From: Bacillales bacterium
GTDB taxonomy: Bacteria > Bacillota_I > Bacilli_A > RF39 > UBA660
Reading direction: 5' to 3'
Assembly (NCBI GenBank): GCA_016288635.1
Contig: JAEEKZ010000018.1
Location: 8,650-72,649 of the forward strand
DNA: 64,000 bases
Numbering within the stretch: position 1 is the first letter of the stretch; every line of letters begins with the position of its first letter. Shown here one piece after another: positions 1,941 through 53,366 of the stretch. Made by a program: the position numbers and the translations under genes. The notes beneath the pieces were generated by a model. It was not told the origin of the DNA. It did not search any database and saw only the letters and a program-made list of their open reading frames with translations.

Positions 1941-1951
1941 GAGGTACTATT

Positions 1952-2320: not shown

Positions 2321-2328
2321 GAGGATAT

Positions 2329-2664: not shown

Positions 2665-2666
2665 TT

Positions 2667-3206: not shown

Positions 3207-3220
3207 GGAGGATATGTTTT

Positions 3221-3406: not shown

Positions 3407-3424
3407 GAAGGAGGATAGTTTAGT

Positions 3425-3820: not shown

Positions 3821-3828
3821 GGTTTTAT

Positions 3829-4368: not shown

Positions 4369-4379
4369 GAGGTACATGT

Positions 4380-4736: not shown

Positions 4737-4744
4737 GAGGACTT

Positions 4745-5254: not shown

Positions 5255-5255
5255 G

Positions 5256-6970: not shown

Positions 6971-6972
6971 GA

Positions 6973-7626
6973 ATGAAAAGTGTCATATTTATTGCACCAC
7001 CTGCTGCAGGTAAGGGTACACAAAGTAGTATTCTAATGGAAAACTATGGATATACTCATATTTCAACAGGTGATATGTTAAGAGAAGAGATTAGTAATAA
7101 TACTTCTTTGGGGGTTAAGGCAAACGAAATTATGGCAAAGGGTGGACTTGTTGATGATGAAATCATTATTGGAATGGTTGAAAACAAGTTAAATAGTGTA
7201 AAAGGTAAACCATTTATTTTAGATGGTTTTCCTAGAACGCTAAATCAAGCAAAAGCGTTAGATAGTTTACTTGCTAAATTAAATATTGAAGATATTAAAG
7301 TTATTTATATTGATTTAGATTTAGAAACCGCTTTAAAGAGAACTTTAGGTAGAGTTACATGTACTAAATGTGGAGCGTCATTCAATTTGAATAATCCAGA
7401 TTGTATGCCTAAAGTTAAAGGTATATGCGACAATTGTCAAGGTGAGTTAGTTGTTCGTGAAGATGATAATGAAGAATCATTTAGAAATCGTTTCGAAACA
7501 TTTATTAATAACACTAAGCCTATTGTTGATTATTATAAGGAACATAATAATTTGGCAATCATTGAGCCAAATAATGACAAAATGGTTGTTGCTACAATGA
7601 TAAAAGATATTTTGAATTGTGAGTAA
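6973..7626 (+). CDS. adk: adenylate kinase (Zn-lid type)
   Basis: P-loop APPAAGKGTQ, GDMLRE, and a lid with CTKCG...CDNC. Confidence 0.95.
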   Translation: MKSVIFIAPPAAGKGTQSSILMENYGYTHISTGDMLREEISNNTSLGVKANEIMAKGGLVDDEIIIGMVENKLNSVKGKPFILDGFPRTLNQAKALDSLLAKLNIEDIKVIYIDLDLETALKRTLGRVTCTKCGASFNLNNPDCMPKVKGICDNCQGELVVREDDNEESFRNRFETFINNTKPIVDYYKEHNNLAIIEPNNDKMVVATMIKDILNCE

Positions 7627-35444: not shown

Positions 35445-36395
35445 ATGTGTGTGAATACGAATGTCGATACAAAGACTTTTAAAACCTTAGATGAGCAAAT
35501 TGATATTTTAATTCGCAAAGGTCTTATTATCAAAGATTATGATTATACAAGAACTATCCTTTTAAGAGAGAACTACTTCTTCTTAAATGGTTATAGATTA
35601 TTGTTTATGGAATCTAATGCTAATAGGGTCTTTATTAAAGGTGCGACTTTTGATGAATTGTATGCGATGTTCAATTTCGACAGACAGTTGCGTAATATTA
35701 TTTTTAAGAACATCTTAATATTTGAAAATAACATTAAAAGTGTAATAGCATATGTTTTCAGTAGAAATCATGGGTTTAAAGAAAAAGTCTATTTAAATGT
35801 TAATAATTATATTAGAGATGCTAAAAGATTTAAGCAAGTAAATGACCTTTTATATAAAATGAAAAGACAAATAAGGGTTAATGGAAGACAGCATACTGCA
35901 ACTAGTCACTATATTGACAAGTATGGATATATTCCTTTGTGGGTTGCTGTTAAAGTCTTATCATTTGGTATTGTTGGTGAGTTATATACTATTTTGCAGT
36001 ATAAGGATCAAGAAGAAATTGCTGATGTATTTAACATGGATATGGATGCATTAGTTGATTATTTACCTATTCTTGCAAATTATAGAAACCTATGTGCTCA
36101 TGAAGATATTTGTTATGAGAATAAGACGCAAAAAGAGATTGAAGATACTAAATATCATAGAATGCTCTTTATTCCAAAAGATGGAGATCATTATAAATAT
36201 GGAAAAGATGATTTATTCTCATTAGTTATCATTTTAAAACAAGTTTTGGATAATGATGATTTTTGTATGTTTATGCGAGAAGTTAATTATGAATTGGATA
36301 TTCTTGCGGGTAAACTTCATTCAATTAATATAAATAAAGTGTTGGATAAGATGGGATTCCCAGTTAATTATAATGAGATAGTAAGGATGATGTAG
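35445..36395 (+). CDS. Abi-like protein (Abi_2 / AbiD-AbiF type abortive-infection family)
   Basis: 316 aa. N-terminus FKTLDEQIDILIRKGLII, then NYFFLNGYRLLF, LWVAVKVLSFGIVGELY and YRNLCAHEDICYE, matching the Abi_2 pattern as I recall it. Confidence 0.7.
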   Translation: MCVNTNVDTKTFKTLDEQIDILIRKGLIIKDYDYTRTILLRENYFFLNGYRLLFMESNANRVFIKGATFDELYAMFNFDRQLRNIIFKNILIFENNIKSVIAYVFSRNHGFKEKVYLNVNNYIRDAKRFKQVNDLLYKMKRQIRVNGRQHTATSHYIDKYGYIPLWVAVKVLSFGIVGELYTILQYKDQEEIADVFNMDMDALVDYLPILANYRNLCAHEDICYENKTQKEIEDTKYHRMLFIPKDGDHYKYGKDDLFSLVIILKQVLDNDDFCMFMREVNYELDILAGKLHSININKVLDKMGFPVNYNEIVRMM

Positions 36396-37526
36396 ATGAA
36401 TGATTTAAACATTGATTTTAAAACTAAAAAGAAAAAAGGAATTGGCATAGGTGGGCTAGTTTTGGCCTTTTTTGTGGGGTTATTATCAATGTTTTTAATA
36501 TCTAATGCTTATCCTTTAAATACTATTCTTTATAAAACTGAAGATGGTAAAATTGTTTATGAAACAAAGAGTGTTACTGTAACTGATGTTGGAATTGCTG
36601 AATCTGTTAAGAAAGTGTATGATGCTTCAGTTGTTGTAACTGCATATAAAGATGGTAAAATTACATCTACCGGTACAGGGTTTGTATTTAAAAAAGATAA
36701 AAATTTAGCTTATATTTTAACTAATCATCATGTTATTTCTAGTGCTCTAACTACTAGTGGAAAAGTATTTGTTACGTTTACAGATGACACAACACATGAA
36801 GTTACAGTTGTTGGTAGTAATCAATATGATGATATTGCTGTTTTAAGTATAGAAGCATCTAAGGTTAAATCTGTAGCTAAACTTGGAAGTAGTGAAAAGG
36901 CTGAAGTTGGCGATACAACATTTGTTATTGGAGCTCCAATGGGTACTGTTTATTCGTGGACTGTAACTAGAGGTATTTTATCTGGAAAGGATAGATTGGT
37001 TGAAGTTAGTGTAGCTAATAAAAATGTTGTTGATTATGTAATGAGAGTATTACAAACGGATGCTGCAGTTAACTCCGGTAATAGTGGAGGCCCTCTTTGT
37101 AATATTAATGGGGAAGTAATTGGCGTTGTTTCCCTAAAGGTTATTTCAAGTGGTGTTGAAGGAATGGGCTTTGCAATTCCTATTGAGGAAGCTTTACAGT
37201 ATGCTAATAAAATAATGTCGGGACAAGGTAATAAACTCCCTTATTTAGGTTTATCTATGGGCGATATTACTGCAGATATTGCAAATAAATATAATGTATC
37301 TAGTGGTGTTATTGTTAGATTTGTTGAATCTGGATCGTGTGCAGATGAAGGCGGCCTTAAAAAAGGTGATATTATTACAAAGTTAGGAAATACTAAGACA
37401 AAATCAACTATTTATTTAAGATATGCGTTATATAGATATAATGTTGGTGATAAAGTTGAAATAACCTTCTATAGAGATAATAAAGAGATGAAAACAGAAG
37501 TTATTTTAAAGGAAGCAAAGAACTAA
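36396..37526 (+). CDS. htrA: HtrA/DegP-family serine protease with PDZ domain
   Basis: N-terminal TM and a trypsin-like triad context (TNHHV, DIAVL, GNSGGPL). The C-terminal PDZ domain contains GLKKGDIITKLG. The ATG abuts the abi stop codon. Confidence 0.92.
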   Translation: MNDLNIDFKTKKKKGIGIGGLVLAFFVGLLSMFLISNAYPLNTILYKTEDGKIVYETKSVTVTDVGIAESVKKVYDASVVVTAYKDGKITSTGTGFVFKKDKNLAYILTNHHVISSALTTSGKVFVTFTDDTTHEVTVVGSNQYDDIAVLSIEASKVKSVAKLGSSEKAEVGDTTFVIGAPMGTVYSWTVTRGILSGKDRLVEVSVANKNVVDYVMRVLQTDAAVNSGNSGGPLCNINGEVIGVVSLKVISSGVEGMGFAIPIEEALQYANKIMSGQGNKLPYLGLSMGDITADIANKYNVSSGVIVRFVESGSCADEGGLKKGDIITKLGNTKTKSTIYLRYALYRYNVGDKVEITFYRDNKEMKTEVILKEAKN

Positions 37527-37550
37527 GTGTCAACACTTAGTTCTTTTTTA
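37519..37550 (+). terminator. strong intrinsic terminator after htrA (left boundary of island)
   Basis: 12-bp perfect inverted repeat AGAACTAAGTGT/ACACTTAGTTCT followed by T6. Confidence 0.85.
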
Positions 37551-37569: not shown

Positions 37570-37599
37570 TTGTAATAAATAGACAAATAGTGTTAAAAT
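37570..37599 (+). promoter_or_regulatory. sigma-A type promoter of the island's first operon
   Basis: TTGTAA (37570-37575), 18 nt, TGtTAAAAT (37594-37599). SD AGGAAGGG precedes ATG 37620. Confidence 0.55.
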
Positions 37600-37619
37600 T
37601 ATTATATTAGGAAGGGTAT

Positions 37620-39023
37620 ATGAAGTTCGTTGAGAGTGTGTTTAACAAGTTTTTTATTAACGTAGACTTTCCATTTGAATCAGCGAGTTTTTCGGAATTA
37701 ATTCAAGATTTATTTCAAAAATATGGCGGAATATTAATTGCTATTTGTGTTGGCGTTGTTGTTTTTTATGTCGTCTCTGCTTTATTTTTAAATAAATTTA
37801 GTAAAAATGTTACTGGTTCTGGATCCATTCTGGCCTGGGTTCCTCTGGGTAGAACTTTTTTGTGTGGAAAATTAGCTCAAGGTCATGTATGGGGTGTTCT
37901 TTTGCTTCTATATCCTTTTGCTTTATATTTCTGGGATATCTTTTCAATACCTGAGCGAACTGTTCCTTATTTTGTCTTAGGATATTTAATAGCATACGTG
38001 GTTACTTTAATTAGCTTGGTCGTAAGGTTTTTTACAGGCTTGGGTGAAAGTAATTCTGGCGGATATATTAATTATAAAGCAAATCAAATTGCATCTGGTG
38101 AGATTGATCCTAATGCTTTTGTAGAAGCAAATGGTACTATGAATTTAACTAAAAAATATATAATGCAAAGTAGAATGAAACAAGCAGAATTTAATAAAAA
38201 TAGGCCTGTTCATAGTTCAAACACTAAACAACAAGGTAATTCTAATCAGGGAGGTACGAATGTGTTTATGCAAATGATAGAAGGAGAAAATAATAATAAT
38301 CAGGCACCAACAGTAGCTGCATCTCCAGAAAACATAAATGAAACAAGTGATAGTAAGTTAGAAAATACAATACCGGTTATTGTATTTAAAAATAAAAATA
38401 ATGCGCCTAAACCAGGTATGCCTATGAGTGGTGGATTTATTCAGCAAGGACCTCAACCCTTCCAGCGTCCTCCAATGAGTCAAGGAAGCCAACCATTTGG
38501 TCAGTCTAATCAGGGACAGTTTGTTAGACGTAATCCTCAGCAGGGAATTCCTCAAGTGATGCAACAACAAGTTGTTCAGCCTCAAGTTCAACAACAAGCT
38601 GTACAGCCACAAATGGTACAACCTCAGATGATTCAGAGAAATCAATACAAGATTAATCAACAACAACAGGCAATCTCTCAACCATTTGGTCAACCTATAA
38701 GGCCACAAACTATGCAACCAACAGGTATGCCACAACAAGCTGTAAACCCTTCACAGCCGCAAATGGTACAGCCTAAGGTTGCTGCGCAGGCAATAGGCCC
38801 TGCACAAGTACAAGTTGCTAGTCAACAGGGATTACCTCAACAAGGATTAAATGCTGGTCAACAACAGCTAGTTCGTCCTCAGGGAATGCCTCAACAGGTA
38901 GCTAGACCAGTTCAACCACAAATGGTACAACCTCAAATGCAACAGCAAGTTGCAAGAACAGTTCAGCCACTGCCTACTCAACAAGGTCTTGGTCAAAATA
39001 CTGGTAATGGGCTAGGAGGCTAA
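37620..39023 (+). CDS. polytopic membrane protein with a ~200-aa Gln/Pro-rich repetitive C-terminal region
   Basis: 467 aa with 3-4 N-terminal TM helices. From about aa 265 the composition is dominated by Q, P, V and M, with reiterated QPQMVQPQM units. No family recognised. Confidence 0.75.
   Translation: MKFVESVFNKFFINVDFPFESASFSELIQDLFQKYGGILIAICVGVVVFYVVSALFLNKFSKNVTGSGSILAWVPLGRTFLCGKLAQGHVWGVLLLLYPFALYFWDIFSIPERTVPYFVLGYLIAYVVTLISLVVRFFTGLGESNSGGYINYKANQIASGEIDPNAFVEANGTMNLTKKYIMQSRMKQAEFNKNRPVHSSNTKQQGNSNQGGTNVFMQMIEGENNNNQAPTVAASPENINETSDSKLENTIPVIVFKNKNNAPKPGMPMSGGFIQQGPQPFQRPPMSQGSQPFGQSNQGQFVRRNPQQGIPQVMQQQVVQPQVQQQAVQPQMVQPQMIQRNQYKINQQQQAISQPFGQPIRPQTMQPTGMPQQAVNPSQPQMVQPKVAAQAIGPAQVQVASQQGLPQQGLNAGQQQLVRPQGMPQQVARPVQPQMVQPQMQQQVARTVQPLPTQQGLGQNTGNGLGG
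38604..38939 (+). repeat. dispersed in-frame nucleotide repeats encoding QPQMVQP
   Basis: CAGCCACAAATGGTACAACCTCAGATG (38604-38630), CAGCCGCAAATGGTACAGCCT (38753-38773) and CAACCACAAATGGTACAACCTCAAATG (38913-38939). Confidence 0.85.
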
Positions 39024-39025
39024 TC

Positions 39026-40678
39026 ATGGAAGCTTTAGCTATTAGTGCAGCAAATTTAGATGTAATAGAAAAAAATATGAATGACGTCGCAAAATCATTA
39101 GGCGGCGTTATTTCTAATGTAAATTATGTTAATTCTCATGTTGCAGAAATTGAAAATAAAGTTGTAGGCTTAAACGATGAAATTAAGAAGCTTGTTGATG
39201 AAATAAGAGAGAATTCAATCGTTAGTAATGCAAGACAATCTATTATGATGAACAATAGTATCTTAGAAAAGAAATTTGGATATTATGATAGTGTTAGAAG
39301 AGCTGCTTCTTCACTAGCTAGTTCTATTAATAAGTCTAAGATTAGTAGATCTTATCTTCAAAAAATAAGATATGATGTTTTATTAAACAATCCGAATTAT
39401 TGGCTTTCTAATGCATATGCTGCTGTTTGTGATTGGTTGATTAATGATAAGGCAAGTTGTGATATTGAAGTTAAAAATGCGCTTAATCAAGATGCTAATA
39501 AAACTTCATTATTCTTTGCTATGCTTTATGTTAAGCTTGATAGAGAGAATGTTGCTTGCAAATGGTTAAGTAAGTATCTATCTACACTTAACCCTTTAAA
39601 ACTAAATGATGATTTTGCATATATTTTTGATTTAATTGCTAATGGAGCTTTTGGTAGTTCAGGATTAGCAATTTTAAAAGAAACTATTGACGGATGGGAT
39701 ACTAGACTAGCTTCAGATGTAAGCGTTCAAAAGGAAGCAATTAATTTTTGGGAATCTTATATAAATTTAGCGAGAAAAGCACATGCCGTACCTTTTTTAA
39801 AATATGTTGATAAAGGTAATGACATCTTGAATAATATAGAAATATCTGAGTTATATGGTGAAATTACAAATAATTTAGAATATATTTTGAATTATGAAGG
39901 CAATAAGAAGAGTCTTGATGATTTATTATATGAAGTATTATTTTCATCTGAAAAGAATGAAAAAGTATATAGAAAAGATAACTTAATGAACCAATTAATT
40001 ATTGAAAATAATGGTGATAGAGAAAAAGCAAAAGAATTATTTGATAAACAAGAAGCAGTTTATGATGAAGAAATGAACTTTCATTTGCTATGCAGTAATA
40101 TAGTTATTAATTTTAATAGATATGAAGTAAGTGGACAAGCTAGAGTTCTTGCGTTGTCATATGTAAAAAAATATATATTTGATGTTTTTCAATATTTCAA
40201 TAGTCAGATCAATAACGATCCTATTAAATTAACATTTTCAGATTTTTCAACTGAAACTGTTGATGGAAGTAATATCAATGAAGCTAAAAATGAATTAGTT
40301 ATGTTTGCCGAAAAGAAATATCCTGTTAATTATAAAAATAATGTGATTATTATTGCAGTAGTTACAATAGTTGGTATTATTGCGCTTGCATTTGCATCAC
40401 AAAATATGATTTTGGTGGCTGCTATATGTTGTGTATTTGTTATAGTAGATTTAGTTTGTGTTTATAATATATTAAAGGATCTAAATGCAAAAAAAGAATT
40501 AAGAGGCAAATTAATTAATGTATATGGTTCTGTTTTAGAGAAAAGTTTTGCGGAGATTACTGATTATAAACGTGGACTTGAAGAAAAGAAACAAGATTAT
40601 CAAAAACTTGTTACATTGCTAGATGGTTTAAATGCAACAAATTCTTTTGCTTCAAGTGATAGAAATGTTCAAATATAG
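39026..40678 (+). CDS. hypothetical protein with N-terminal coiled-coil and C-proximal TM hairpin
   Basis: 550 aa, SD AGGAGG, 2-nt gap to the upstream ORF. It has a heptad-like N-terminus (VAEIENKVVGLNDEIKKLVDEIRE). Two adjacent hydrophobic helices lie at about aa 435-480. No family recognised. Confidence 0.7.
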   Translation: MEALAISAANLDVIEKNMNDVAKSLGGVISNVNYVNSHVAEIENKVVGLNDEIKKLVDEIRENSIVSNARQSIMMNNSILEKKFGYYDSVRRAASSLASSINKSKISRSYLQKIRYDVLLNNPNYWLSNAYAAVCDWLINDKASCDIEVKNALNQDANKTSLFFAMLYVKLDRENVACKWLSKYLSTLNPLKLNDDFAYIFDLIANGAFGSSGLAILKETIDGWDTRLASDVSVQKEAINFWESYINLARKAHAVPFLKYVDKGNDILNNIEISELYGEITNNLEYILNYEGNKKSLDDLLYEVLFSSEKNEKVYRKDNLMNQLIIENNGDREKAKELFDKQEAVYDEEMNFHLLCSNIVINFNRYEVSGQARVLALSYVKKYIFDVFQYFNSQINNDPIKLTFSDFSTETVDGSNINEAKNELVMFAEKKYPVNYKNNVIIIAVVTIVGIIALAFASQNMILVAAICCVFVIVDLVCVYNILKDLNAKKELRGKLINVYGSVLEKSFAEITDYKRGLEEKKQDYQKLVTLLDGLNATNSFASSDRNVQI

Positions 40679-40687
40679 GAGATTCAA

Positions 40688-40900
40688 ATGGAAGAAGGAA
40701 TTAAAGTATTAGGAGATAACAATCCTGGAATTAAACCAGTTACGGATAATATTGTTGAAAGTAAACCAGTAGATAATGATGGAATCAAGCCCGTTAGCGT
40801 TAATCAGAATGTTAATACACAAGTTGCTGGTTCAAATGACGATTATATTGAAGGAATTCCGGATTGGAGTATAGAGCCTGAAGTTCTAATTAAGAGGTAG
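40688..40900 (+). CDS. small hypothetical protein with GIKP(V) repeats
   Basis: 70 aa, SD AGGAG upstream. It has EGIKVLGDN / PGIKPVTDN / DGIKPVSVN repeats and a conserved-looking tail GIPDWSIEPEVLIKR. No TM. Confidence 0.55.
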   Translation: MEEGIKVLGDNNPGIKPVTDNIVESKPVDNDGIKPVSVNQNVNTQVAGSNDDYIEGIPDWSIEPEVLIKR

Positions 40901-40902
40901 CT

Positions 40903-41346
40903 ATGACATATAATGATTGGCTAGATTTTATAAAAAAAATAGAAACAAGTAAATTATCCGATGATATGTTAGATGTTATTAAGAATAATCAGTTAAATGA
41001 TAGTTTTAAAGAAAATGTTCTTACGAAGATGGATGAAGCAATTTATAAAAGACTTTCTACTGCTACGGAAAACATAGCTTCTAAACTTACTTATTTGTTT
41101 GAAGATGAATATTTAATGGAAATGCAGTTGGTTATATTTAAAAAAGAAACAAACATTTTATATAAAATAGTAAAATCAGGGATCTTTCCTCAAGAATATG
41201 TTGAAAAAAGAACAGAACAAATAAGAGATGACGTTGATAAAATATTTGATATTTTATATAACGAAGCAAATAAGATTGATTTTTCAGGTGTTTTAGGAAT
41301 GTCAATAAAAAATAATAGAATAAGGTGGGATAAAGATGAATTATAG
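40903..41346 (+). CDS. hypothetical soluble protein
   Basis: 147 aa, helical-looking. It lies 2 nt after the previous stop and its 3' end overlaps the AAA+ gene by 11 nt. Confidence 0.6.
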   Translation: MTYNDWLDFIKKIETSKLSDDMLDVIKNNQLNDSFKENVLTKMDEAIYKRLSTATENIASKLTYLFEDEYLMEMQLVIFKKETNILYKIVKSGIFPQEYVEKRTEQIRDDVDKIFDILYNEANKIDFSGVLGMSIKNNRIRWDKDEL

Positions 41347-42853
41347 TGAGGTAAAAGAATATTTAGTAAGATATTTAAAAGCAAGAATACCTGTTATTAT
41401 TGTTAATACTGTTGAAAAAGAACGTGTTATTAGAATGCTTAAGGAAATAAGTGGTGAAGCCTCTACAAAGTTTTCTTTATATCAGATGGCAACTGGAGTT
41501 AGCGATTTAGTAACTGGTGATGTTTTATCTGATGAAAAAATGATAATGGGTGTTTTGGATTATGTTAGTTCAGAAATTAAATATCAAAGCAACTATAATT
41601 TTGTTATGGCTGATGTTTCAGACATTAGTTCTCCATCTACTGTTTCAAGATATTTATTAGACTTAATAAATAAATTTGAAGTTACTTCAAGTACTTTAAT
41701 TATTATTTCTAATGAACCTATTTGGAATAATATTTCAAGAATGGGTATAACATTATCATTAGATTATCCTAATTATGATGAATCTGAAACAACTATTAAA
41801 AAATTAGTTGAAAGATATAGAAGCCAAATTAATGTTGAATGGGACGATATGGATTATAAAAACGTTGCTATTTATTTACATGGTTTGAGTGAAATGGAAA
41901 TAAAAAACATTATAATGTCATTAATTGTAAAAGGTAGTGTTACAAAAGAAGATTTAAAAGAATTAAAGTATGCAAAAAGAGATCTATTTACTGATATTGC
42001 AGGACTAGAAGTTGTCGATGTTGATGATGATTTTGAAGTTGCTGGTTTGGAAATATTAAAAGAATGGCTTTATGAGAAAAAAGTGTTTATGAATTCTGAG
42101 AAAAGAGAGGAACTAGAAAATAGAGGTATGACTTCTCCAAGAGGAATACTTTTAGTTGGTGTTCCTGGATGTGGAAAGAGTTTATGTTCTAAAGCAGCTG
42201 CCAATATTTTAAATGTTCCTTTATATAGACTAGATCTTGCTACTGTTCAAGGACAATATGTTGGTCAGTCTGAAGCTCAATTAAAAGAAGCTTTGGATAC
42301 TGCAGAATTCGTTTCTCCTTGTGTTTTATGGATTGATGAAATTGAAAAAGGTTTAAAACAAGGAAATGGAAATAGTACAACAACAAAAATGATAGGACAA
42401 TTCTTATTCTGGCTACAGGAATGTAGAAAACCCGTATTTGTTGTTGCAACCGCAAACAGCATTGAAGATTTACCTCCTGAACTTGTTCGTAAGGGAAGAT
42501 TTGATGAAATATTCTTTGTTGATTTACCAAATAGAGTTGAAAGAAAAGAAGTTATAAAATTATACTCTAAGAAATATCTTAAGATTGAACTTGGAGATTC
42601 GTTTATGAATAAGTTATTAGATATAACAGAAGGATTCGCATCAAGTGATATCGAATCCACAATAAGAGCAATTGCTTATAAAATTATTTCTAATCCTGAA
42701 ATTCAATTAACTGAAGCGTTAATAGAGAGTGAATTATCTAAGGTTTATTCTCTTCAAAAAACTAATCCAGAAAAGATTAAGGCAATTAGAGATTGGGGTA
42801 ATAGTAGAGCTACAAAGGCTTCAAAAGAAGATACTACTTTTGAAACTTTGTAG
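41336..42853 (+). CDS. Ycf46-like AAA+ ATPase (degenerate N-terminal domain + canonical C-terminal AAA module)
   Basis: N-terminus YLKARIPVIIVNTVEKERV resembles the Ycf46 opening (ARYPLIY..T.EE.R). The C-terminal module has Walker A GVPGCGKS, VGQSE, Walker B CVLWIDEIEK and VVATANSIEDLPPELVRKGRFDE. Confidence 0.7.
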   Translation: MNYSEVKEYLVRYLKARIPVIIVNTVEKERVIRMLKEISGEASTKFSLYQMATGVSDLVTGDVLSDEKMIMGVLDYVSSEIKYQSNYNFVMADVSDISSPSTVSRYLLDLINKFEVTSSTLIIISNEPIWNNISRMGITLSLDYPNYDESETTIKKLVERYRSQINVEWDDMDYKNVAIYLHGLSEMEIKNIIMSLIVKGSVTKEDLKELKYAKRDLFTDIAGLEVVDVDDDFEVAGLEILKEWLYEKKVFMNSEKREELENRGMTSPRGILLVGVPGCGKSLCSKAAANILNVPLYRLDLATVQGQYVGQSEAQLKEALDTAEFVSPCVLWIDEIEKGLKQGNGNSTTTKMIGQFLFWLQECRKPVFVVATANSIEDLPPELVRKGRFDEIFFVDLPNRVERKEVIKLYSKKYLKIELGDSFMNKLLDITEGFASSDIESTIRAIAYKIISNPEIQLTEALIESELSKVYSLQKTNPEKIKAIRDWGNSRATKASKEDTTFETL

Positions 42854-42869
42854 TTTTTTTCACATTTAA

Positions 42870-42898
42870 TTGAAAATTATGGGTTTTAATTATATAAT
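42870..42898 (+). promoter_or_regulatory. near-consensus sigma-A promoter in front of the T4SS-like module
   Basis: TTGAAA (42870-42875), 17 nt, TATAAT (42893-42898). I see no terminator hairpin between the AAA+ stop and this promoter. Confidence 0.65.
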
Positions 42899-42928
42899 GT
42901 TACTATGATAAGTATACGAGGTGTTGAT

Positions 42929-43378
42929 ATGACAAATTATAAAAAAATAATGAAGGGGATATTTTATATGATATCTTTCCTTTTAATTGTGACTCCAGGA
43001 ACTTTATATGCAGCAACAACCAAACCTTTCGTTTTTTGTGAGGGAAATGTTTTGGTAGCATTTAGAATTTTAGGATTAGTTATTGCGTTTGTTAAAATTG
43101 GAGTTCCTATACTTTTAATGGTTTTAACAACAATCAATGTATTTAAAGCAATGTTAGCTGGTGATGATAAAGATTATAAAGGCTCTGCAACATTATTTGG
43201 TAAGAGATTATTAATTTCGCTTATTATTTTTATATTGCCTTCTATTATTGATGGAGTTCTAAGTATCGTTTCTAAAGATTATAATAATGTATCATTGAGC
43301 GAAGGATCAAGTGATAGTTTTGCAGCGTGCACTAAATGTATGTTAAATGTTGATTCTTGTCCTCAAAAAATTGGATAG
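42929..43378 (+). CDS. small secreted/membrane protein with VirB2/TrbC-like topology (copy 1)
   Basis: Signal peptide ending LYA-ATT, then two TM helices separated by a charged loop (KAMLAGDDKDYKGS). ATG 42929 with SD GAGGTG is preferred over 42905. Confidence 0.4.
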   Translation: MTNYKKIMKGIFYMISFLLIVTPGTLYAATTKPFVFCEGNVLVAFRILGLVIAFVKIGVPILLMVLTTINVFKAMLAGDDKDYKGSATLFGKRLLISLIIFILPSIIDGVLSIVSKDYNNVSLSEGSSDSFAACTKCMLNVDSCPQKIG

Positions 43379-43398
43379 GATGATTAATTGGAGGAAAA

Positions 43399-43788
43399 AT
43401 GAAAAAGAAAGATTTAAGATTTTTGTTAATTTTGATTATTTGCATTTTATTGGTTCCTATTGTTGTTCATGCTGACGCAGTAGCTAGTTGTAATACATTA
43501 TTGGGAAATCCTAAAAATCCAGATGAGCCAGCATATTATGTTAATATGGCTTTTCAGCTTATAAAATATGTATGTATGGTTTTGCTTCTTATATATTCGA
43601 CTATAGATTTTGCGAAAGCGTTAACAACAGAAGATCAAGCGGCTTTAAAAAATGCTGGTTTGAAGTCTGGAAAAAGAGTTATTTATTTAATAGTATTGTT
43701 TTTTCTTCCAACTTTAATATTCACTATTTTTGAATGGCTTGGTATTGTAAGTGCATCTGATTGCAGTCCAATGCTATCAGGAAATTAG
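43399..43788 (+). CDS. small secreted/membrane protein with VirB2/TrbC-like topology (copy 2)
   Basis: 129 aa with a signal peptide ending VHA-DAV and two TM helices separated by the loop AKALTTEDQAALKNAGLKSGKR. Same architecture as copy 1. Confidence 0.4.
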   Translation: MKKKDLRFLLILIICILLVPIVVHADAVASCNTLLGNPKNPDEPAYYVNMAFQLIKYVCMVLLLIYSTIDFAKALTTEDQAALKNAGLKSGKRVIYLIVLFFLPTLIFTIFEWLGIVSASDCSPMLSGN

Positions 43789-43798
43789 TAGGTGTATT

Positions 43799-46700
43799 AT
43801 GAATAAATATATATGGTCATTAGGATTGCTTGATGGAATTATAAATTGGTTTAATGATGCTTTAGGAGATGTATCCCATTTTTTTCATTGTGTCATTAAA
43901 GGAATCACAACTAATCTACATTTAGGATTAATTGATTTTTCTATGTTTGTTGATAATCTATTTATGTATGTATCTTCATATTTTATTAGGCTATTTACGG
44001 CATTAGCTTCTATTCGACTTTTTCAAGATGATAATACTGTTTATAACGATTTAGCAAAAAAAGTGTATGTTTTTATGGTTTTTCTTATGTTCTTTATTTT
44101 GGCATACAATCTTATATATCATGTTATAGATCCTGATAATAAAAATTCTAAAGTTGGTACTCCTGGTCAAACTGCAAAGAAAATTGTTATTGCCTTGATT
44201 GGTATTTTATTTGCACCAACGGCTTTCAATTTTTTAGGAAATGTCCAAACAGCGATAGTTAAGTATAATACTATTGGTAAGTTAATATTCCCTGATCAGG
44301 CTTCTAATAGCGGTGCAGAGGATGCTGCTGATTCAGCAATTGCAGATATCTATAAAGCATTTGTTTATCCAACAGAAGATCCGAATTCAAACCCTAAATT
44401 GATTAAAAAAGAACTTGTTGTTGGTTTTATTGAAAGTTGTGGTATATGTAATGATATGGATCATTATTACCATGATGGAGAGCCAGATCATTACGGTGGC
44501 GTTGCTGCGTGTAAAAGTCCAAACATATTTTCTGACTTTACATATGAGTCTGTATTTGTAGAAGCCAGAACAGAACATAATTTTTTCCTACTACATGGTT
44601 ATTTGTCACCAAATGTGTTGGTTCAAAATAAAATTGCAACAATGGAATCACAAGTTCATGGTGGTTGGAAGGCTGATGTATATAGAAATAATGGTTTAAC
44701 ATATATACCAGGGGTTCCTTTAATTGTGTTTATTTATTTGTGTTATACAGTATTCTTATTCTTATTTGATTTAGCTTTAAGAATGTTTAATTTATTTTTC
44801 TTGGAGATTATGTCACCAATTGCGTTTGGGATGTATTTACTTCCTCCGTCTAAAGATAAAATGTTTAATACTTGGTTAAGCGCTTATTTTAAAACGTATG
44901 CCTTAGTATTTGTTAAAATGTTATTTCTTTTCATGATGCTTTGGTTAATGCAAAAAACTGTAGAAGCTAATGGTATTATTGCTACTATAATGAGCAGTTT
45001 ATCTTCTGCTTTAGCGGGTATGTCTTTCTTTACTAAGATTTTCTTAACGGTAATTATATTATGCGGTTTATTTAGATTTATTAATAATTTACCTAAATTC
45101 TTGAAAGATTCATTTGGCTTTGATATTAATTCAATGGGTAAATCTAGTGCTAAAGCTATATTTGGCGATATTAAGGAAGGATTTGCTAAAACTAAAAAAG
45201 CAGTTACTGCTCCTTATCATGCTACAAAAAAAGCAGCTGGTCATGCCGCTGGTGCATATGGTGGTGCTAGATATGGTCTAAAGAAGATTAAGGACAATAT
45301 GAAAAATGCCAAAACCACTACTGGTAAAATGAAAGGATTTATGTCTGGGTTAAATGCTCTTAGACATTCTACAGCAGCTGGAATGAAGGCGGAAAATGCC
45401 AGAGCTGGTGTTTTAGCTGGTCAAGCCGCATATCAAGAAAGACAACAAGCATGGAGAAATGAAAAGAATGCTTGGAAAAATATGTTTGCCAATGTTGAGG
45501 AATCTTTAAAGCATATTAAAATTTCTACTGATGGTTTTAGAGATCAAATTAAAATTGTTCTTGAAAATAATAGTGCAAATATTGCTCAAGCAGATGGTGT
45601 TGTTCAAAAAAATATGGATAATGCAAAATTAGCAAAGGTTGTTACAGATAAAGCTGGTGGCAAAGTTGCTAGACTTAGCGATGATCAAATTAGTGCTTGT
45701 ACGGCTAGGGCTAATGATATGGATAAAGAAATTGAAGCAGCTGATTCAGATTTTGCTGCTGCAACTGCATTGCAAACTGCTGCGCAAAATGGCTTTGTTG
45801 TTGCGGACCAAAAAGCAGAGGCTGACTTCCGTACTGAGTTAATTCAAGCAAGGAATGCTTATAAAGCAAGAGTTGGTAGAGAACTTACTGCTGCAGAGGA
45901 AGAAAATGTAGCGACTGGAGTTGTTAATAAGTTTAAGAATGCTAATAGAATTGTTCACTCAACTAATTCTGCACAAACTCAATCTGCGATTTCTGCATAT
46001 TCCGGTGTTGCACAGGAAGCTGCTAAAAGAAAAGAAAGTGCTACAAGGGCTCGAGGTCAATATGAGGCTGCATCTAAAGGGGAAATGATATTTACAGATC
46101 ATGCTGTTAAATCTCAATTTGATCAAAAAGTTCAGGCGGCTTATGATAAAGCTAAAGCTGCAAATCCAAATCTTAATGAAGCTAAATTTAAAGCTGATTA
46201 TGGAAGTACGTTGGCACAACAATATATGGAAGCTGGACTAATGATTTCTTCATCTACCACTTTGGGTGCTAGAGAGTCATATGCTCAAGAATTAGCTTAT
46301 ACTCGTTATGAAGATTTATCTGCTGAACAAAAGGCTTTAATGACTGAAGAGGAATATCACGCTCATCAAGCTTCTGCACAACAGCAAGCAGCTATTTTGA
46401 AAGGCGCTGCTGGTGAAATTGCACTCCAATTTGGTACGGATGGTGGAGATCTTGATACTCTTGGATTATCTTCAAAGGATCGACAAGTTCTTGATAATGC
46501 AATTCAAGCACAATTAGCAACTTCTGAAGTTGTTCAAAGTCTAATTAAATCAGGCGATTTGCAAGAAATTAATGATTCTTTAAGTCGAGCTGGGGTTGTA
46601 AGCGATGCACTTGGCGAATTCCCTACGCCAGAAGATGCAAATGATCCGAAAAAACATGCATTCGATGGACAACGTGGTAAAATTGTTACCGAATTTGCAA

Positions 46701-46813
46701 AACAAATGAAGACTGTTGATTCTTATAATACGAAAGTGTCTCAAGAAGAAAAATTATATCAAGCTAAAACTGGTGGTACCGGAGGTTCCAACGGTTCTGG
46801 TGGATCTAAATAG
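43799..46813 (+). CDS. giant polytopic VirB6/TrbL/ConG-like membrane protein with ~520-aa Ala/Gln/Lys-rich C-terminal extension
   Basis: 1004 aa from ATG 43799 (SD TAGGTG). It has multiple TM helices and the core DLALRMFNLFFLEIMSPIAFGMYLLPPSKDKMFNTWL typical of VirB6-like proteins. The C-terminal half is helical and low-complexity, ending GGTGGSNGSGGSK. Confidence 0.55.
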   Translation: MNKYIWSLGLLDGIINWFNDALGDVSHFFHCVIKGITTNLHLGLIDFSMFVDNLFMYVSSYFIRLFTALASIRLFQDDNTVYNDLAKKVYVFMVFLMFFILAYNLIYHVIDPDNKNSKVGTPGQTAKKIVIALIGILFAPTAFNFLGNVQTAIVKYNTIGKLIFPDQASNSGAEDAADSAIADIYKAFVYPTEDPNSNPKLIKKELVVGFIESCGICNDMDHYYHDGEPDHYGGVAACKSPNIFSDFTYESVFVEARTEHNFFLLHGYLSPNVLVQNKIATMESQVHGGWKADVYRNNGLTYIPGVPLIVFIYLCYTVFLFLFDLALRMFNLFFLEIMSPIAFGMYLLPPSKDKMFNTWLSAYFKTYALVFVKMLFLFMMLWLMQKTVEANGIIATIMSSLSSALAGMSFFTKIFLTVIILCGLFRFINNLPKFLKDSFGFDINSMGKSSAKAIFGDIKEGFAKTKKAVTAPYHATKKAAGHAAGAYGGARYGLKKIKDNMKNAKTTTGKMKGFMSGLNALRHSTAAGMKAENARAGVLAGQAAYQERQQAWRNEKNAWKNMFANVEESLKHIKISTDGFRDQIKIVLENNSANIAQADGVVQKNMDNAKLAKVVTDKAGGKVARLSDDQISACTARANDMDKEIEAADSDFAAATALQTAAQNGFVVADQKAEADFRTELIQARNAYKARVGRELTAAEEENVATGVVNKFKNANRIVHSTNSAQTQSAISAYSGVAQEAAKRKESATRARGQYEAASKGEMIFTDHAVKSQFDQKVQAAYDKAKAANPNLNEAKFKADYGSTLAQQYMEAGLMISSSTTLGARESYAQELAYTRYEDLSAEQKALMTEEEYHAHQASAQQQAAILKGAAGEIALQFGTDGGDLDTLGLSSKDRQVLDNAIQAQLATSEVVQSLIKSGDLQEINDSLSRAGVVSDALGEFPTPEDANDPKKHAFDGQRGKIVTEFAKQMKTVDSYNTKVSQEEKLYQAKTGGTGGSNGSGGSK

Positions 46814-46839
46814 TGGTTTGAAAGGAGTAGTGTGAGATT

Positions 46840-49176
46840 ATGGCAAAAGTAAACAATAATGCACAACCTGAAACAGTTGCATCTGTTTGGGCTACGGTTA
46901 GACAAATCACTAGTGGTGTTGTAGTTCTTAATACTGGTGAACTTGTTTCTGGGGTAAAGATTATCCCTAGAAACATTTTTATCATGCAACAAGATGATAC
47001 AAATGCAATTATTTATGGTTTAAGTAAGTTTTATGACTCAATAGATTTTGACTATTGGTTAATTATTGGTGATAAACCAGTTGATTTGAATAATTATTTT
47101 AATTCAGTTCAGAATATTTATAACACAAGTAGTTCTGAGCATATTAGATCAATTGCACGTGATGACATTGTTAAAGCTAATAAATATGTTTCTGGAGACT
47201 ATGGTGTTTCTGATACAGAATATTTCTTATTATTTAAAGATAAAACAATACAATCAGTACAAGAAAGAATATCTAAGTTAATTAGTGGCATTAGGGAATG
47301 TGATCTTGATGCTACTCAAGTATCAAATGATGAACTTCGTTTAGTTATGGATACATTCTTAAGTAATGGTAAGAAAGCTATCGCTCTTGGCGATGAATCT
47401 GATGATGCAAAAGCAAATAATGATGTTAGTTTTGATGATACATATTTTAAGTATGGTGGAACATTCTCCACTATTCTTAGTGTAATCGGTTATCCTGGTT
47501 CTATTTATCCTGGATACTTGTCAGGTTTAATCAATATTCCTAATGCACGTATTTCAATTAAATATCAAAAAACTCAATTTGACTCATTGAGGAAGATTGT
47601 TGGTAGAGAAATAGCTATTTTAAAGCAAAAATATCAAACAGAAAGAGATTTAGCTTTACAGGAAAAATTAAGAAATGATTACGAAAATTTGGAATCATAT
47701 TTGAAAACAATTAAAGATAATGACATGCAAGTATTTAATTCATGTATGAATATTATGGTTTCTGCGGAAACTCTTGAATTATTAGAAGAACATAAGAATA
47801 ATGTTAGAAGATATCTTGAAAATATGGGAATTTCTTCCATTATTATGATTAAGGAATTGGATTCTGTGCTAAAGTCAATGTTACCTATTTTTGACGATCA
47901 ATTGGTAACTAGAAGAATTAACATTCCTATTCCATCTTATACTATGTCTACAATGTATCCATATGTATTTGACAGTTTAAAGGATCCTGGAGAATCATAT
48001 TTAGTTGGTGGAGATTTTTCTGGTGGTGTAGTTTTATTTGATCAATTTGCTTATTTAAAAAATACATCTTCTAATAGATATAACGCTAATATTATTGCTG
48101 TTGGAGAAAAGATTAATGGTAAAACAACATTATTAAAGTTACTTACTAGAGGTAATGTTAGAAATGGTAATGTTGTTTCGCTTGTTGATGAATCTTCTGA
48201 GTATGATTCTATGACTTCAAATTATGGCGGGGAATATCTTACTTTAGATTCGGATAATGTTGGTGGCATTTTAAACCCATTAGAAATAATAAATGATGTT
48301 ACGGATGACGAGAAGAAACAAGGATTAAATTATACGGCAATGGTTCGTACAATAACTTATTTAAAGGCTTTGTTAAAATATATTAATCCTAATGTTGAAG
48401 ATGATGTTGAGAAGAAATTTGAAGAAGTGTTAACGGTAACTTACAGACGTTTTCATATAGATATGAATACTGATTATTCAGAGATTCAATCTAGTCAGTA
48501 TCCAATATTTAATGATGTGTATGCAACTGTTAAGGGGTCTTATTTGTCTTCTCCAGAAGGATCTGCAGAACGTGATGTTTTAAAAAGACTTGAAAAGTGT
48601 GTTGTTCCTTTTGTAAATGATTATGCAAAGTACTTTAATGGTCATACGACATTAGAAATAAAGGATAATTTTATATCATTTGGGGTAAATTATTTAAATA
48701 CTCCAACCACAGTTAAATTAGGTTTAGAGCTTACAGCGTTAAAATATTGTTGGAAAAGAAGTTGCGATGTTAACCATTTTTCTTCAATAGTATTTGATAA
48801 TGTCAACACATTATTTAGTACTGACAATGTTTTTGCAGCTGATTATATTTCGCAAATAGTAAGAAGATCGTTATTATTTAGAAACGGATGTATTTTCTCT
48901 ATTGAAAATACTAAAGATTTAGTTTATCAAAATACAATTTCTTATACTAAATCTATGTTTGACAATAGTTCTTACTTCTTTGTTATGAATTTAAGAAAAC
49001 AAAATTTTAATTATTTATCTCGAATGATTAAATTTAATGATGCTGAAGAAGCCTTTATTAAATCGATTGGAAAGGGAGATTGCTTATTCCTTTGTGGTTC
49101 TAGAAGACTTCGACTTAATATAATAGTTTCCGATGAAGAATTGACTTCATTTGGATTAAATATAGATTTTCAATAG
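46840..49176 (+). CDS. VirB4-like (TraE/PrgJ/ConE-type) ATPase paralogue with degenerate catalytic motifs
   Basis: 778 aa, colinear over its full length with the 49495-51845 pair. Walker A pattern is kept (GEKINGKT). DPEGE becomes DESSE, Walker B DE becomes DN (IVFDNVN) and ITQQ becomes SIEN. Confidence 0.7.
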   Translation: MAKVNNNAQPETVASVWATVRQITSGVVVLNTGELVSGVKIIPRNIFIMQQDDTNAIIYGLSKFYDSIDFDYWLIIGDKPVDLNNYFNSVQNIYNTSSSEHIRSIARDDIVKANKYVSGDYGVSDTEYFLLFKDKTIQSVQERISKLISGIRECDLDATQVSNDELRLVMDTFLSNGKKAIALGDESDDAKANNDVSFDDTYFKYGGTFSTILSVIGYPGSIYPGYLSGLINIPNARISIKYQKTQFDSLRKIVGREIAILKQKYQTERDLALQEKLRNDYENLESYLKTIKDNDMQVFNSCMNIMVSAETLELLEEHKNNVRRYLENMGISSIIMIKELDSVLKSMLPIFDDQLVTRRINIPIPSYTMSTMYPYVFDSLKDPGESYLVGGDFSGGVVLFDQFAYLKNTSSNRYNANIIAVGEKINGKTTLLKLLTRGNVRNGNVVSLVDESSEYDSMTSNYGGEYLTLDSDNVGGILNPLEIINDVTDDEKKQGLNYTAMVRTITYLKALLKYINPNVEDDVEKKFEEVLTVTYRRFHIDMNTDYSEIQSSQYPIFNDVYATVKGSYLSSPEGSAERDVLKRLEKCVVPFVNDYAKYFNGHTTLEIKDNFISFGVNYLNTPTTVKLGLELTALKYCWKRSCDVNHFSSIVFDNVNTLFSTDNVFAADYISQIVRRSLLFRNGCIFSIENTKDLVYQNTISYTKSMFDNSSYFFVMNLRKQNFNYLSRMIKFNDAEEAFIKSIGKGDCLFLCGSRRLRLNIIVSDEELTSFGLNIDFQ

Positions 49177-49190
49177 AAAGGATGGTTTAA

Positions 49191-49505
49191 ATGAATAGTA
49201 ATTACTTGATTCCTGCTAATTCAAAAAGATCGCAGTTGATTCTTAACTGGCTTAAGCCAATTGATTTAATTATTCTAGTAAGTGGTGCACTAGTCACTGC
49301 TATATTAGCTTTCATTTTTGGTTCTAAAGCGACTTTTGTTGGGCTTGTACTTATGTGTGTGCCATTATTGGTTTGCGTTACACTAGTTCTTCAAGTACCA
49401 AATTATCATAATGTTCGCCAGTTATTAACAAATATTTTTACGTATTTCTTTATAAGACCAAGAACTTATTATTGGAGAGGCTGGTGTGTAGACGATGAAG
49501 AATGA
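49191..49505 (+). CDS. VirB3/PrgI-like small two-TM protein
   Basis: 104 aa with two TM helices (IDLIILVSGALVTAILAFIF; VGLVLMCVPLLVCVTLVL). It sits immediately upstream of, and overlaps, the VirB4-like gene, as VirB3-type genes do in Gram-positive T4SS loci. Confidence 0.5.
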   Translation: MNSNYLIPANSKRSQLILNWLKPIDLIILVSGALVTAILAFIFGSKATFVGLVLMCVPLLVCVTLVLQVPNYHNVRQLLTNIFTYFFIRPRTYYWRGWCVDDEE

Positions 49506-50055
49506 TATATACGCTGGTAGAAATTATTCTGAGGATTGGATTCCAATTAAGCAAATTGCAAATGGAATGATCGAACTCGATACTAATGAATTTGTTTGTG
49601 GCGTAAAAGTTCAGCCAAGGAATATATTTATTGTTCCTCAGCAAGAAAGAACAAATGTTATTAATAACTTATCTTCGTTTTATAATACGCTTGACTATGA
49701 ATTTTGGTTGGTTATTGTTAATAGACCGGTTGATATTGCTGCTTATATAGCTCGTTTACAAGTTTTAGAAAATTCTAATACAATGCATCCTGCTATTAAA
49801 AAAATGGTTAATGAAGATATAGCTAAAGCAAATCAGTTTGTTGGATCTAGTTATAATGTTACTGATACAGAGTATTATTTCTTATTTAAGGAAAAGAAAC
49901 CTGAATTAATAGAGAAAAAGTTAAATGATATTATTGGTGGTCTTTCTGGTGCAAGATTAACTGGTACAAGAGCAACAAATGAAGATATGAGGATGATACT
50001 AGACAATTTCTTCAGTGATTGTAAGAGTACGTCATTTAATTCGGTAGGTGTATAA
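49495..50055 (+). CDS. VirB4-like protein, N-terminal domain encoded as a separate ORF
   Basis: 186 aa aligning with aa ~13-190 of the 46840 ORF (GVKVQPRNIFIVPQQE vs GVKIIPRNIFIMQQDD; DTEYYFLFKEK vs DTEYFLLFKDK). It ends in TAATG, which is shared with the next ORF. Confidence 0.7.
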   Translation: MKNDIYAGRNYSEDWIPIKQIANGMIELDTNEFVCGVKVQPRNIFIVPQQERTNVINNLSSFYNTLDYEFWLVIVNRPVDIAAYIARLQVLENSNTMHPAIKKMVNEDIAKANQFVGSSYNVTDTEYYFLFKEKKPELIEKKLNDIIGGLSGARLTGTRATNEDMRMILDNFFSDCKSTSFNSVGV

Positions 50056-51845: not shown

Positions 51846-51869
51846 AATTAAGATTGGTGGTGAATTAAT

Positions 51870-53261: not shown

Positions 53262-53275
53262 ATATTTATTAAATT

Positions 53276-53301
53276 AAAAAACATATTTATTATGTTTTTT
53301 T
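53276..53301 (+). terminator. intrinsic terminator inside the island
   Basis: Perfect 10-bp stem AAAAAACATA/TATGTTTTTT with a 5-nt loop. AT-rich. Confidence 0.5.
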
Positions 53302-53334
53302 AATTATTTTTTATATAGATATAAATATAATATA

Positions 53335-53343
53335 TGATATAAT
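53335..53343 (+). promoter_or_regulatory. extended -10 element upstream of the coupling-protein gene
   Basis: TGaTATAAT (TATAAT 53338-53343), 24 nt upstream of ATG 53367. SD AAGGAGGGG. Confidence 0.45.
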
Positions 53344-53366
53344 TAATTAGAAAAGGAGGGGAATTT

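Follow-up and report, generated by a model that had tools for sequence, protein, structure and literature searches.

A four-gene cassette encoding a tandem AAA+ ATPase recurs across distant bacteria and mobile elements

Introduction

To which cellular machinery does an AAA+ ATPase belong when its gene closes a compact operon and stands directly before a set of secretion genes? This question is raised by a 64 000 nt stretch of DNA from a Bacillales bacterium (GTDB lineage Bacteria; Bacillota_I; Bacilli_A; RF39; UBA660; GenBank assembly GCA_016288635.1, contig JAEEKZ010000018.1, positions 8650 to 72 649; hereafter the window). The window is chromosomal DNA of low G + C content (GC; ~30%). It contains an operon of five genes (termed g1 to g5) that is flanked on either side by housekeeping genes, ends with the ATPase gene and is followed by a block of genes resembling a type IV secretion system (T4SS). 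An earlier note on this DNA had proposed that the ATPase might serve the T4SS as an energiser or substrate-processing module, or else that the five genes represent an independent, undescribed membrane-associated system. The comparisons described here favour the second proposal, for four of the five genes.

A conserved cassette of four genes

The genes g2, g3, g4 and g5 form a conserved unit with a fixed order that travels together across distant bacteria and mobile elements. Conservation of the originally described gene set in other genomes thus holds for g2 to g5 and not for g1. Among gut Bacilli, g2, g4 and g5 are syntenic in at least 13 GTDB species. Genomes resembling Candidatus Coprovivens carry g2, a small open reading frame (ORF), g4 and g5 in the same order, with identities to the window proteins of ~41% for g2, ~30% for g4 and ~66% for g5, and the small ORF corresponding to g3 sits between g2 and g4 in every locus. 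The Coprovivens-like cassettes are flanked by genes for MscL, a U32 peptidase, Zip, a XerC-like recombinase, MgsA and GpsA, and have no T4SS gene within 10 kb. Within the gut Bacilli alone, the cassette occupies at least five different genomic contexts.

The same synteny is found well outside this group. It recurs in four further loci (L027, L028, L034 and L036), in other metagenome-assembled genomes of Bacilli and in contigs of 56–68% GC. Mobile carriers include the 14-kb Streptococcus satellite prophage Javan368, a Comamonas megaplasmid and two small Komagataeibacter plasmids, one of which (26 kb, non-mobilizable) has the cassette adjoining an IS3 element; a Fusobacterium replicon carries the cassette as well. 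A complete cassette occupies 9.6–14.2 kb of Javan368 (MK448457) and 1.1–5.6 kb of the Komagataeibacter record NZ_CP134889. When a plasmid collection was searched, the N-terminal domain of g5 (by tblastn) and g2 matched exactly the same four records. By record taxonomy the g2 family spans at least three phyla, in addition to the high-GC contigs. A metagenome scan returned at least 432 further relatives, of which 80 loci were fetched as a sample, and both g4 and g5 are present in all 52 of the metagenomic loci with enough downstream sequence.

These comparisons also bear on the reality of the genes. We judge the ORFs to be genuine genes rather than products of chance: more than 100 fetched loci contain full-length homologues of g2, g4 and g5, and every locus checked has the g3 motif. 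A blastn search of the Komagataeibacter cassette against E. coli gave no match, a nucleotide-level result that is uninformative for the proteins. A phage-borne origin was rejected as the general case, since IMG/VR and the phage collection yielded one locus and one satellite prophage, respectively. Searches of the literature returned no account of the cassette.

The cassette and the neighbouring T4SS-like genes

The T4SS-like block encodes two small transmembrane (TM) proteins, a 1020-aa polytopic protein, a 778-aa VirB4-like protein, a 186-aa TraC-like protein, a 596-aa TraG P-loop/AAA_10 ATPase, a 463-aa protein without assignment and a 904-aa VirD4. Since neither a relaxase nor an integrase is visible within the 64-kb window, the block may represent a T4SS fixed in the chromosome and not an intact conjugative element.

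Only the species of the window (L001–L004) and a relative of it (L008/L009), whose AAA+ protein is 93% identical, have T4SS-like genes after the cassette. Such genes are absent within 7–10 kb of the cassette in 26 other loci (L005–L036), and the 80 metagenomic loci contain none apart from three weak P-loop matches. As the loci examined are ~20 kb in length, these statements hold for the neighbourhood of the cassette. Adjacency in two related species, against absence from more than 100 other loci, removes the ground for treating the AAA+ protein as a T4SS module. Conversely, the cassette stands alone on the 26-kb plasmid and in the 14-kb satellite prophage, in agreement with the alternative of an independent system. 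Regular occurrence without T4SS genes and with a known functional annotation had been named in advance as the pattern that would speak against a link; the former is observed, and no known annotation was found.

The ATPase itself has no homology to the VirB4, VirB11 and VirD4 families, which places it outside the T4SS ATPases. Searches of g5 against Pfam and NCBIfam returned PF00004-type matches only, with none to T2SSE (PF00437), CagE_TrbE_VirB or T4SS-DNA_transf. Judged from these sequence comparisons, g2–g5 is autonomous and horizontally mobile and is not part of the neighbouring T4SS.

The junction between g5 and the first T4SS-like gene is consistent with this separation. A convincing terminator is missing from its 51 nt, as had been noticed before, and the only hairpin there is AU-rich and 6 bp long (−4.2 kcal/mol, z = −0.4); however, the junction also holds the sequence TTGAAA-17-TATAAT, an 11/12 match that is the top promoter match between positions 35000 and 44000. 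Given this near-consensus promoter, the T4SS-like block probably has a promoter of its own, and read-through from the cassette may occur as well.

A tandem ATPase with an inactive first module

The g5 protein is a tandem AAA+ ATPase of the Cdc48/p97 kind, with an inactive first module (D1) and a complete second module (D2) that includes an aromatic pore loop. Its initial description as a two-domain protein is borne out by an AlphaFold2 (AF2) model of D1 and by structural alignment across both modules. D1 is modelled with predicted local distance difference test (pLDDT) scores of 84–92 as an alternating beta/alpha fold with a helical lid, and it carries VIIVNTVEKER at the position expected for the P-loop. 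The whole g5 model aligns over D1–D2 of p97, Cdc48, NVL, Rix7 and Pex1/6 (Foldseek E 1e-14 to 1e-16, 530–590 columns). Because D1 lacks a P-loop and the chain starts directly at D1, g5 is Cdc48-like in fold and not a Cdc48 orthologue.

The AAA module was poorly modelled owing to a shallow alignment, and its assignment comes from sequence. PF00004 matches residues 271–396 (2e-29), and among PDB sequences VAT and the D2 module of p97 match best (E ~1e-50). Invariant in 24 homologues are GVPGCGKS (275–282), VLWIDEIE (330–337), Y308-V309-G310, and R385 and R388 within RKGRFD. We take GVPGCGKS to be the Walker A motif, WIDEIE Walker B, YVG pore loop 1, and R385 and R388 the arginine fingers. Walker A and B motifs, an aromatic pore loop 1 and the arginines of the second region of homology together place g5 in the classic AAA+ clade.

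Homologues of g5 number in the thousands. Near ones, which are 64–68% identical and 496–501 aa long, come from uncultured gut Bacilli, and one of them is named Candidatus Coprovivens (Bacilli incertae sedis at NCBI). An entry of the Joint Genome Institute that is identical to the window g5 bears a label at the level of the COG family only, SpoVK/Ycf46/Vps4. A role as a remodeller of the Vps4/ESCRT-III or PspA type was considered and rejected; the likeness to CdvC/Vps4 is confined to the AAA module, and no Pfam match to MIT, Snf7 or PspA_IM30 was found for g1–g5 at E ≤ 0.1.

A membrane scaffold, a motif peptide and a putative adaptor

The three partners of the ATPase lack family assignments. 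Neither g1–g4 nor their distant homologues could be assigned to a family in Pfam, NCBIfam, PADLOC or PHROGs, and g1–g4 have no relatives in the PDB. The AF2 model of g2 (mean pLDDT 80) consists of a long helix at the N-terminus (residues 2–100), a helical-repeat domain (108–393), a beta hairpin, a TM hairpin and a second long helix at the C-terminus. Hydropathy and the model agree in supporting the first portrayal of g2 as a coiled-coil protein with a TM hairpin. Its single hydrophobic stretch has basic residues on both flanks, from which the positive-inside rule predicts that both termini should face the cytoplasm. As modelled, g2 is anchored by this one hairpin, with its bulk on one side of the membrane.

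The g2 family profile collects 716 clusters (50% identity) at E ≤ 1e-3 and 327 at E ≤ 1e-30, nearly all of them full-length proteins of 550–620 aa. Comparison of the g2 model with the PDB by Foldseek gave no match at E ≤ 1e-3 and a weak TPR-like resemblance only, and the profile returned coiled-coil noise only from PDB sequences. Against PADLOC, g2 gave weak matches only (2TM effector, 0.007; ZorA, 0.014).

The small g3 protein was first described by its GIKP repeat. This repeat is present but lineage-specific, and the conserved portion is instead the C-terminal IPDWSIEP...KR. Across ~30 distinct loci, which come from low-GC Bacilli, Streptococcus, Fusobacterium, Alpha- and Betaproteobacteria and high-GC contigs, the N-terminal part varies and has a low-complexity sequence, and the motif and the basic tail are kept in every lineage. 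We consider g3 to be probably disordered and a carrier of short linear motifs. In L022 and L035 it is fused to the C-terminus of g2, which indicates that g3 works with g2; in other lineages it is preceded by an N-terminal double zinc ribbon. L035 encodes a distant g2 relative that stands without an ATPase and has the g3 motif at its own C-terminus.

The g4 protein, whose ORF is confirmed and which has no membrane-spanning helix, is soluble as initially stated. Its homologues are always placed between g3 and g5, and an alignment across phyla reveals an N-terminal (T)YxxW motif in which the tyrosine is invariant. We presume that g4 is an adaptor.

In the five-gene type of L028–L033, several cassette proteins share basic-hydrophobic C-terminal tails: TRKVLV, RRAVLLG or RRQVLG in g5, GRRILL or RRRNILI in g4, VRRR or RRKRQK in g3, and ..SSRR[IV].. 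near the end of g2. The g4 protein of gut Bacilli often ends with NEL or DEL, and the window g5 ends with ETL. Similar C-terminal tails may be a shared docking or degron-like signal.

Genomic contexts and a fifth gene

Many cassette loci are flanked by integrases or integrase fragments, and the metagenomic loci present three kinds of context. In type A, which is of the satellite-prophage kind, an integrase fragment is followed by g2–g5, a fifth gene and an integrase. Type B (at least 14 loci) is one long co-oriented block with gaps of 9–78 nt, in which genes for a helix-turn-helix (HTH) protein, a zinc-ribbon/TM protein and a HerA-like 889-aa ATPase precede g2–g5, and a ~1400–1500-aa acidic HExxH protein, further genes and the fifth gene come after it. 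Two type B examples beside an integrase (L074 and L075) show the HExxH motif as HEYRH, an E/D/T-rich N-terminal half and a 244-aa protein before the fifth gene. In type C (~12 loci), a divergent block is followed by g2–g5 and the fifth gene. This block encodes proteins of 132 and 182 aa, a HerA/FtsK-like 1220-aa ATPase and a dynamin-family 846-aa GTPase that has a weak LeoBC match. The contents of the slot between g5 and the fifth gene vary.

The fifth gene encodes a protein of ~160 aa and is found in 46 of the 52 metagenomic loci, upstream or downstream of g2–g5; it is absent from the window and from the Coprovivens-like Bacilli. Its product has invariant C93, H102 and H113 and the motif KCYLGxPYEVH...H[YF], a pattern that suggests a Cys/His enzyme. 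Neither Pfam nor PADLOC, nor a profile search of the PDB, yielded a match for it.

Defence genes occur among the neighbours of some cassettes. AbiD lies two genes upstream of the cassette both in the window (PADLOC AbiD, 3e-54) and in the distant locus L020, and AbiD-like matches are near the cassette in L040, L041 and L045. SspH/mad8-like and PLD-SNF2 neighbours were seen in single loci each. A PADLOC search of 133 neighbouring proteins returned mostly generic matches to kinase, helicase and ATPase domains. Support for defence from the neighbourhood is suggestive rather than statistical.

Proposed role and rival explanations

We propose that g2–g5 is an autonomous, mobile, membrane-tethered unfoldase module with a role in conflict or defence, and we assign this reading a probability of roughly 0.5. 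It is the patchy distribution over several phyla, together with carriage on mobile elements, that leads us to conflict. In the scheme that we envisage, the N-terminal coiled coil of g2 would mediate its oligomerisation at the cytoplasmic side of the membrane, and the helical-repeat domain of g2 would dock the g3 motif, the g4 adaptor or both. Docking would recruit the g5 hexamer, which could then thread and unfold a membrane-proximal substrate, possibly g2 or g3 themselves. The ATPase might restrain a membrane-active partner or activate that partner on a trigger. A more specific version, which we offer tentatively and hold to be possible, is that g2–g5, joined by the fifth protein in most lineages, is the core of an undescribed, widely transferred bacterial system: a membrane-active scaffold would be under the control of a membrane-tethered Cdc48-like unfoldase that the motif peptide steers, and the device would act against phages, in abortive infection or in mobile-element conflict.

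Several observations weigh against a role in conflict. The cassette contains no recognisable effector domain of the nuclease, NADase or protease kind, and g1–g4 match no PADLOC model. More specifically, g1, g3 and g4 gave no matches in PADLOC-DB v2.0.0, and the distant homologues and the fifth gene likewise lack a system-specific match. Many contexts are without any defence gene and consist of plain metabolic or transport genes, and only 1 of 2.9 million IMG/VR contigs carries the cassette. In the Coprovivens-like species, many of which have it at one fixed chromosomal site among housekeeping neighbours, g5 is 62–68% identical to that of the window, an arrangement that looks more like a vertically inherited cellular function. 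In addition, the docking of the g3 motif to the g2 repeat domain and the use of g4 as adaptor are steps that we infer.

The same features lead to the rival that survives best, although we regard it as rather unlikely. The cassette could be a cellular module for envelope stress or proteostasis, in which a membrane-tethered unfoldase extracts or remodels damaged membrane-associated proteins alongside proteases such as HtrA. A fixed syntenic chromosomal site in at least 13 species of small-genome gut Bacilli, with a well-conserved g5, is what such a function would lead one to expect, and in both the window and L020 an HtrA gene is the direct upstream neighbour, with DnaK and DnaJ nearby in L036. 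The intact pore loop and ATPase motifs, the lack of a toxin-like effector and the stress-induced ycf46 operon of cyanobacteria (bioRxiv 10.1101/2025.07.21.665879), which such a module would resemble, point the same way. This explanation has difficulty, however, with the patchy spread of the cassette, which includes a 26-kb plasmid, a 14-kb satellite prophage and integrase-flanked islands, and with the presence of at least five genomic contexts even within the gut Bacilli.

It is improbable that g2–g5 is instead a generic docking or regulatory module that pairs with varied pumping ATPases of the FtsK/HerA superfamily, HerA-like in some loci and VirB4/VirD4 in the window. Such pairing would account for the HerA-like 889-aa gene that, in at least 14 metagenomic loci, precedes g2 by 9–20 nt in the same orientation, for the HerA/FtsK-like 1220-aa and dynamin-like genes that are divergently upstream in ~12 loci, for a DUF87 gene ~9 kb downstream in L005-type genomes, and for the VirB4-like, TraG P-loop and VirD4 genes downstream in the window. 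Nevertheless, most contexts have no such ATPase within 7–10 kb (type A loci, the plasmids, L027, L028, L034 and L036), and the associated ATPases are not orthologous, sharing weak P-loop similarity only. An equally good explanation is that unrelated systems cluster in genomic islands. The DUF87 gene of the Coprovivens-like genomes, which encodes a HerA-type ATPase, is separated from the cassette by housekeeping genes; the HerA fragment near L005 was considered as a VirB4 and rejected, being of HerA type.

Finally, the notion that g5 is an accessory energiser or unfoldase of the adjacent Gram-positive-type T4SS, co-transcribed with it by read-through, can draw on the T4SS-like genes directly after g5 in the window and L008/L009 and on a 51-nt junction without a strong terminator, but it is very improbable given adjacency confined to two close species, complete small replicons that carry the cassette without a T4SS, a near-consensus promoter in the junction, an ATPase unrelated to VirB11 (PF00437 is not matched) and the lack of signal peptides in g2–g5, of which only g2 spans the membrane, so that no channel part is provided.

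Comparison with known systems

Cdc48, p97 and VAT share with g5 the tandem D1–D2 fold, and the pore loop, Walker A and B motifs and arginine fingers of D2 are intact in g5. Unlike these proteins, g5 has a D1 without a P-loop, lacks the N-terminal double-psi-barrel adaptor domain and carries a family-specific C-terminal helix. Its partners are g2–g4 and not adaptors of the UBX or Ufd1-Npl4 type.

Type III-A CoCoNuT loci have been described as encoding Cdc48-like ATPases of the SpoVK family in which the first AAA domain is inactive and the second active (Bell et al., eLife 2024, PMC11090510). As in g5, Walker motifs are found only in the C-terminal module, and the neighbourhoods are of the prokaryotic conflict type. 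The CoCoNuT ATPases differ, in a comparison made by description, in having C-terminal fusions to leucine-rich repeats and a beta-barrel and in residing beside McrBC-type systems, neither of which applies to g5. In cyanobacteria, ycf46 forms a three-gene operon that is induced by stress and (p)ppGpp (bioRxiv 10.1101/2025.07.21.665879). Ycf46 and g5 are of similar size (~500 aa) and both are encoded in small operons with uncharacterised partners, but the ycf46 operon has three genes and the cassette four. A possible resemblance of the N-terminal motif of g5 to Ycf46 was suggested in the earlier note.

IetAS/SgiAT, a defence and toxin-antitoxin pair on mobile elements, combines an AAA+ ATPase with an S8 protease (IetS); the ATPase is of the same COG family and acts as antitoxin to a toxic partner protein (PMC10954446). 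IetA is the best PADLOC match of g5 (2e-26, over the AAA module only); however, IetA has a single AAA module in ~370 aa, and IetAS has no counterpart of g2–g4. Identification of the cassette as IetAS was rejected, as no S8 protease is in or beside it in any locus examined. The phage family phrog_8638, of which the AAA+ ATPase of Pseudomonas phage SM1/PaMx31 is an example, matches g5 over residues 4–500 (E 3e-84) and has the same two-domain architecture; tblastn covers residues 10–497 with 25.6% identity. In contrast, g2, g3 and g4 match no phage protein family.

A functional analogy, and no more than that, can be drawn with NSF, alpha-SNAP and SNAREs, where a tandem AAA+ hexamer with one inactive ring is combined with an all-helical adaptor and a membrane-anchored coiled-coil protein, here the presumed client. 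Neither g2 nor g4 has detectable homology to SNAREs or SNAPs, and the active ring is D1 in NSF and D2 in g5.

Other features of the locus

The features of the window and of the comparison loci are collected in Table 1. As first described, the operon consists of five co-oriented, closely packed genes after a strong terminator, all of them confirmed as plus-strand ORFs. The spacings from g1 to g5 are 2, 9 and 2 nt, with the last pair (g4/g5) overlapping by 11 nt, and a Shine-Dalgarno-like sequence is present at the start of each gene. The upstream terminator has a folding energy of −15.7 kcal/mol (z = −5.0), and 0 of 200 shuffled sequences fold equally well. A promoter of the operon's own, which the earlier note had asserted, finds candidates by consensus match in TAGACA-17-TATATT (10/12) and in an overlapping TTGTAA-18-TAAAAT with a TG extension.

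Table 1. Positions of features in the window (unless a locus is named) and in comparison loci.
Feature	Position	Strand	Remark
AbiD/Abi_2 gene and HtrA-like protease gene	window 35445-37526; L020 5-1955		abutting, no gap in window
Intrinsic terminator of upstream HtrA-like gene	37517-37546	+	13-bp stem, T-run; 5' boundary of operon
Promoter-like sites before g1	37570-37608	+	consensus matches only
g1	37620-39023	+	467 aa
g2	39026-40678	+	550 aa
g2 predicted TM hairpin (residues 434-486)	40325-40483	+	hydropathy scan; AF2 helices 437-457, 461-533
g3	40688-40900	+	70 aa
g3 conserved C-terminal motif IPDWSIEP	40856-40879	+	family pattern [LF]PxW[SDN][LIV]xP, then basic tail
g4	40903-41346	+	147 aa
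g5	41336-42853	+	505 aa, AAA+ ATPase
g5 D1, degenerate AAA-like module without Walker A (residues 1-222)	41336-42001	+	AF2 model
g5 D2, classic-clade AAA+ module and conserved C-terminal helix (NPEKIKAIRDWG) (residues 234-505)	42035-42853	+	
Promoter-like site between g5 and first T4SS-like gene	42870-42898	+	3' boundary of cassette
T4SS-like block	42905-56081		directly after g5, between housekeeping genes
Fifth gene	L029 12102-12584; L030 1106-1576; L032 9486-9971; L028 14306-14821		
Type B blocks beside integrase	L074 5468-19483; L075 87-16962		
Type C divergent block	L088, L091, L097 and similar loci, ~300-7500		
HerA-type (DUF87) ATPase gene	L005 20813-21491	-	~9 kb downstream of cassette
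HerA-type (DUF87) ATPase gene	L117 20086-20795		~9 kb downstream of cassette

The first gene, g1, encodes a polytopic protein with a Q/P-rich tail, a description on which hydropathy and composition agree: three to four hydrophobic segments lie inside residues 30–142, and the tail (201–467) is 25% Q and 12% P. A homologue is present only in L008/L009, the relative of the window's species, with 55–62% identity, and a homologue search with residues 1–200 returned nothing. A candidate counterpart, the 187-aa membrane protein that takes this position in other gut Bacilli, was considered and rejected (profile comparison probability 0.2). The empty search and the lack of a relation to the 187-aa protein remove g1 from the conserved set, and we classify it, by sequence comparison, as a co-transcribed, lineage-specific add-on outside the cassette. 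In L020 the g1 slot is taken by another, different membrane protein of 130 aa.

Upstream of the operon, the window encodes RF-1, a MurA-type enzyme, RpiB, RelA/SpoT, the AbiD/Abi_2 protein and HtrA. MscS and Suf genes come after the T4SS-like block. In the Coprovivens-like species, a gene for a 255-aa HTH protein (L005 12425-13192, with equivalents in L010–L026) is located one or two genes after g5 and is 89–100% identical among them; a 275-aa gene beside it is 34–62% identical and sometimes absent.

Significance

The comparisons do not uphold the recruitment of a classical AAA+ unfoldase by a Gram-positive-type T4SS, and what remains is a compact cassette of four to five genes. This cassette provides a defined set of partners for a Cdc48-like bacterial ATPase with a dead D1 and an active D2, namely a scaffold, a motif-bearing peptide and a presumed adaptor. 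For three to four of the cassette families the libraries searched offer no annotation, yet their conservation extends from gut Bacilli to Proteobacteria. Should the conflict reading prove true, the cassette would be a new type of membrane-linked defence module. If it instead serves in stress, it would provide a handle on the Ycf46-like ATPases, whose function is poorly understood. A conflict device that includes the fifth protein, if confirmed, might also reveal the general role of Ycf46-type ATPases.

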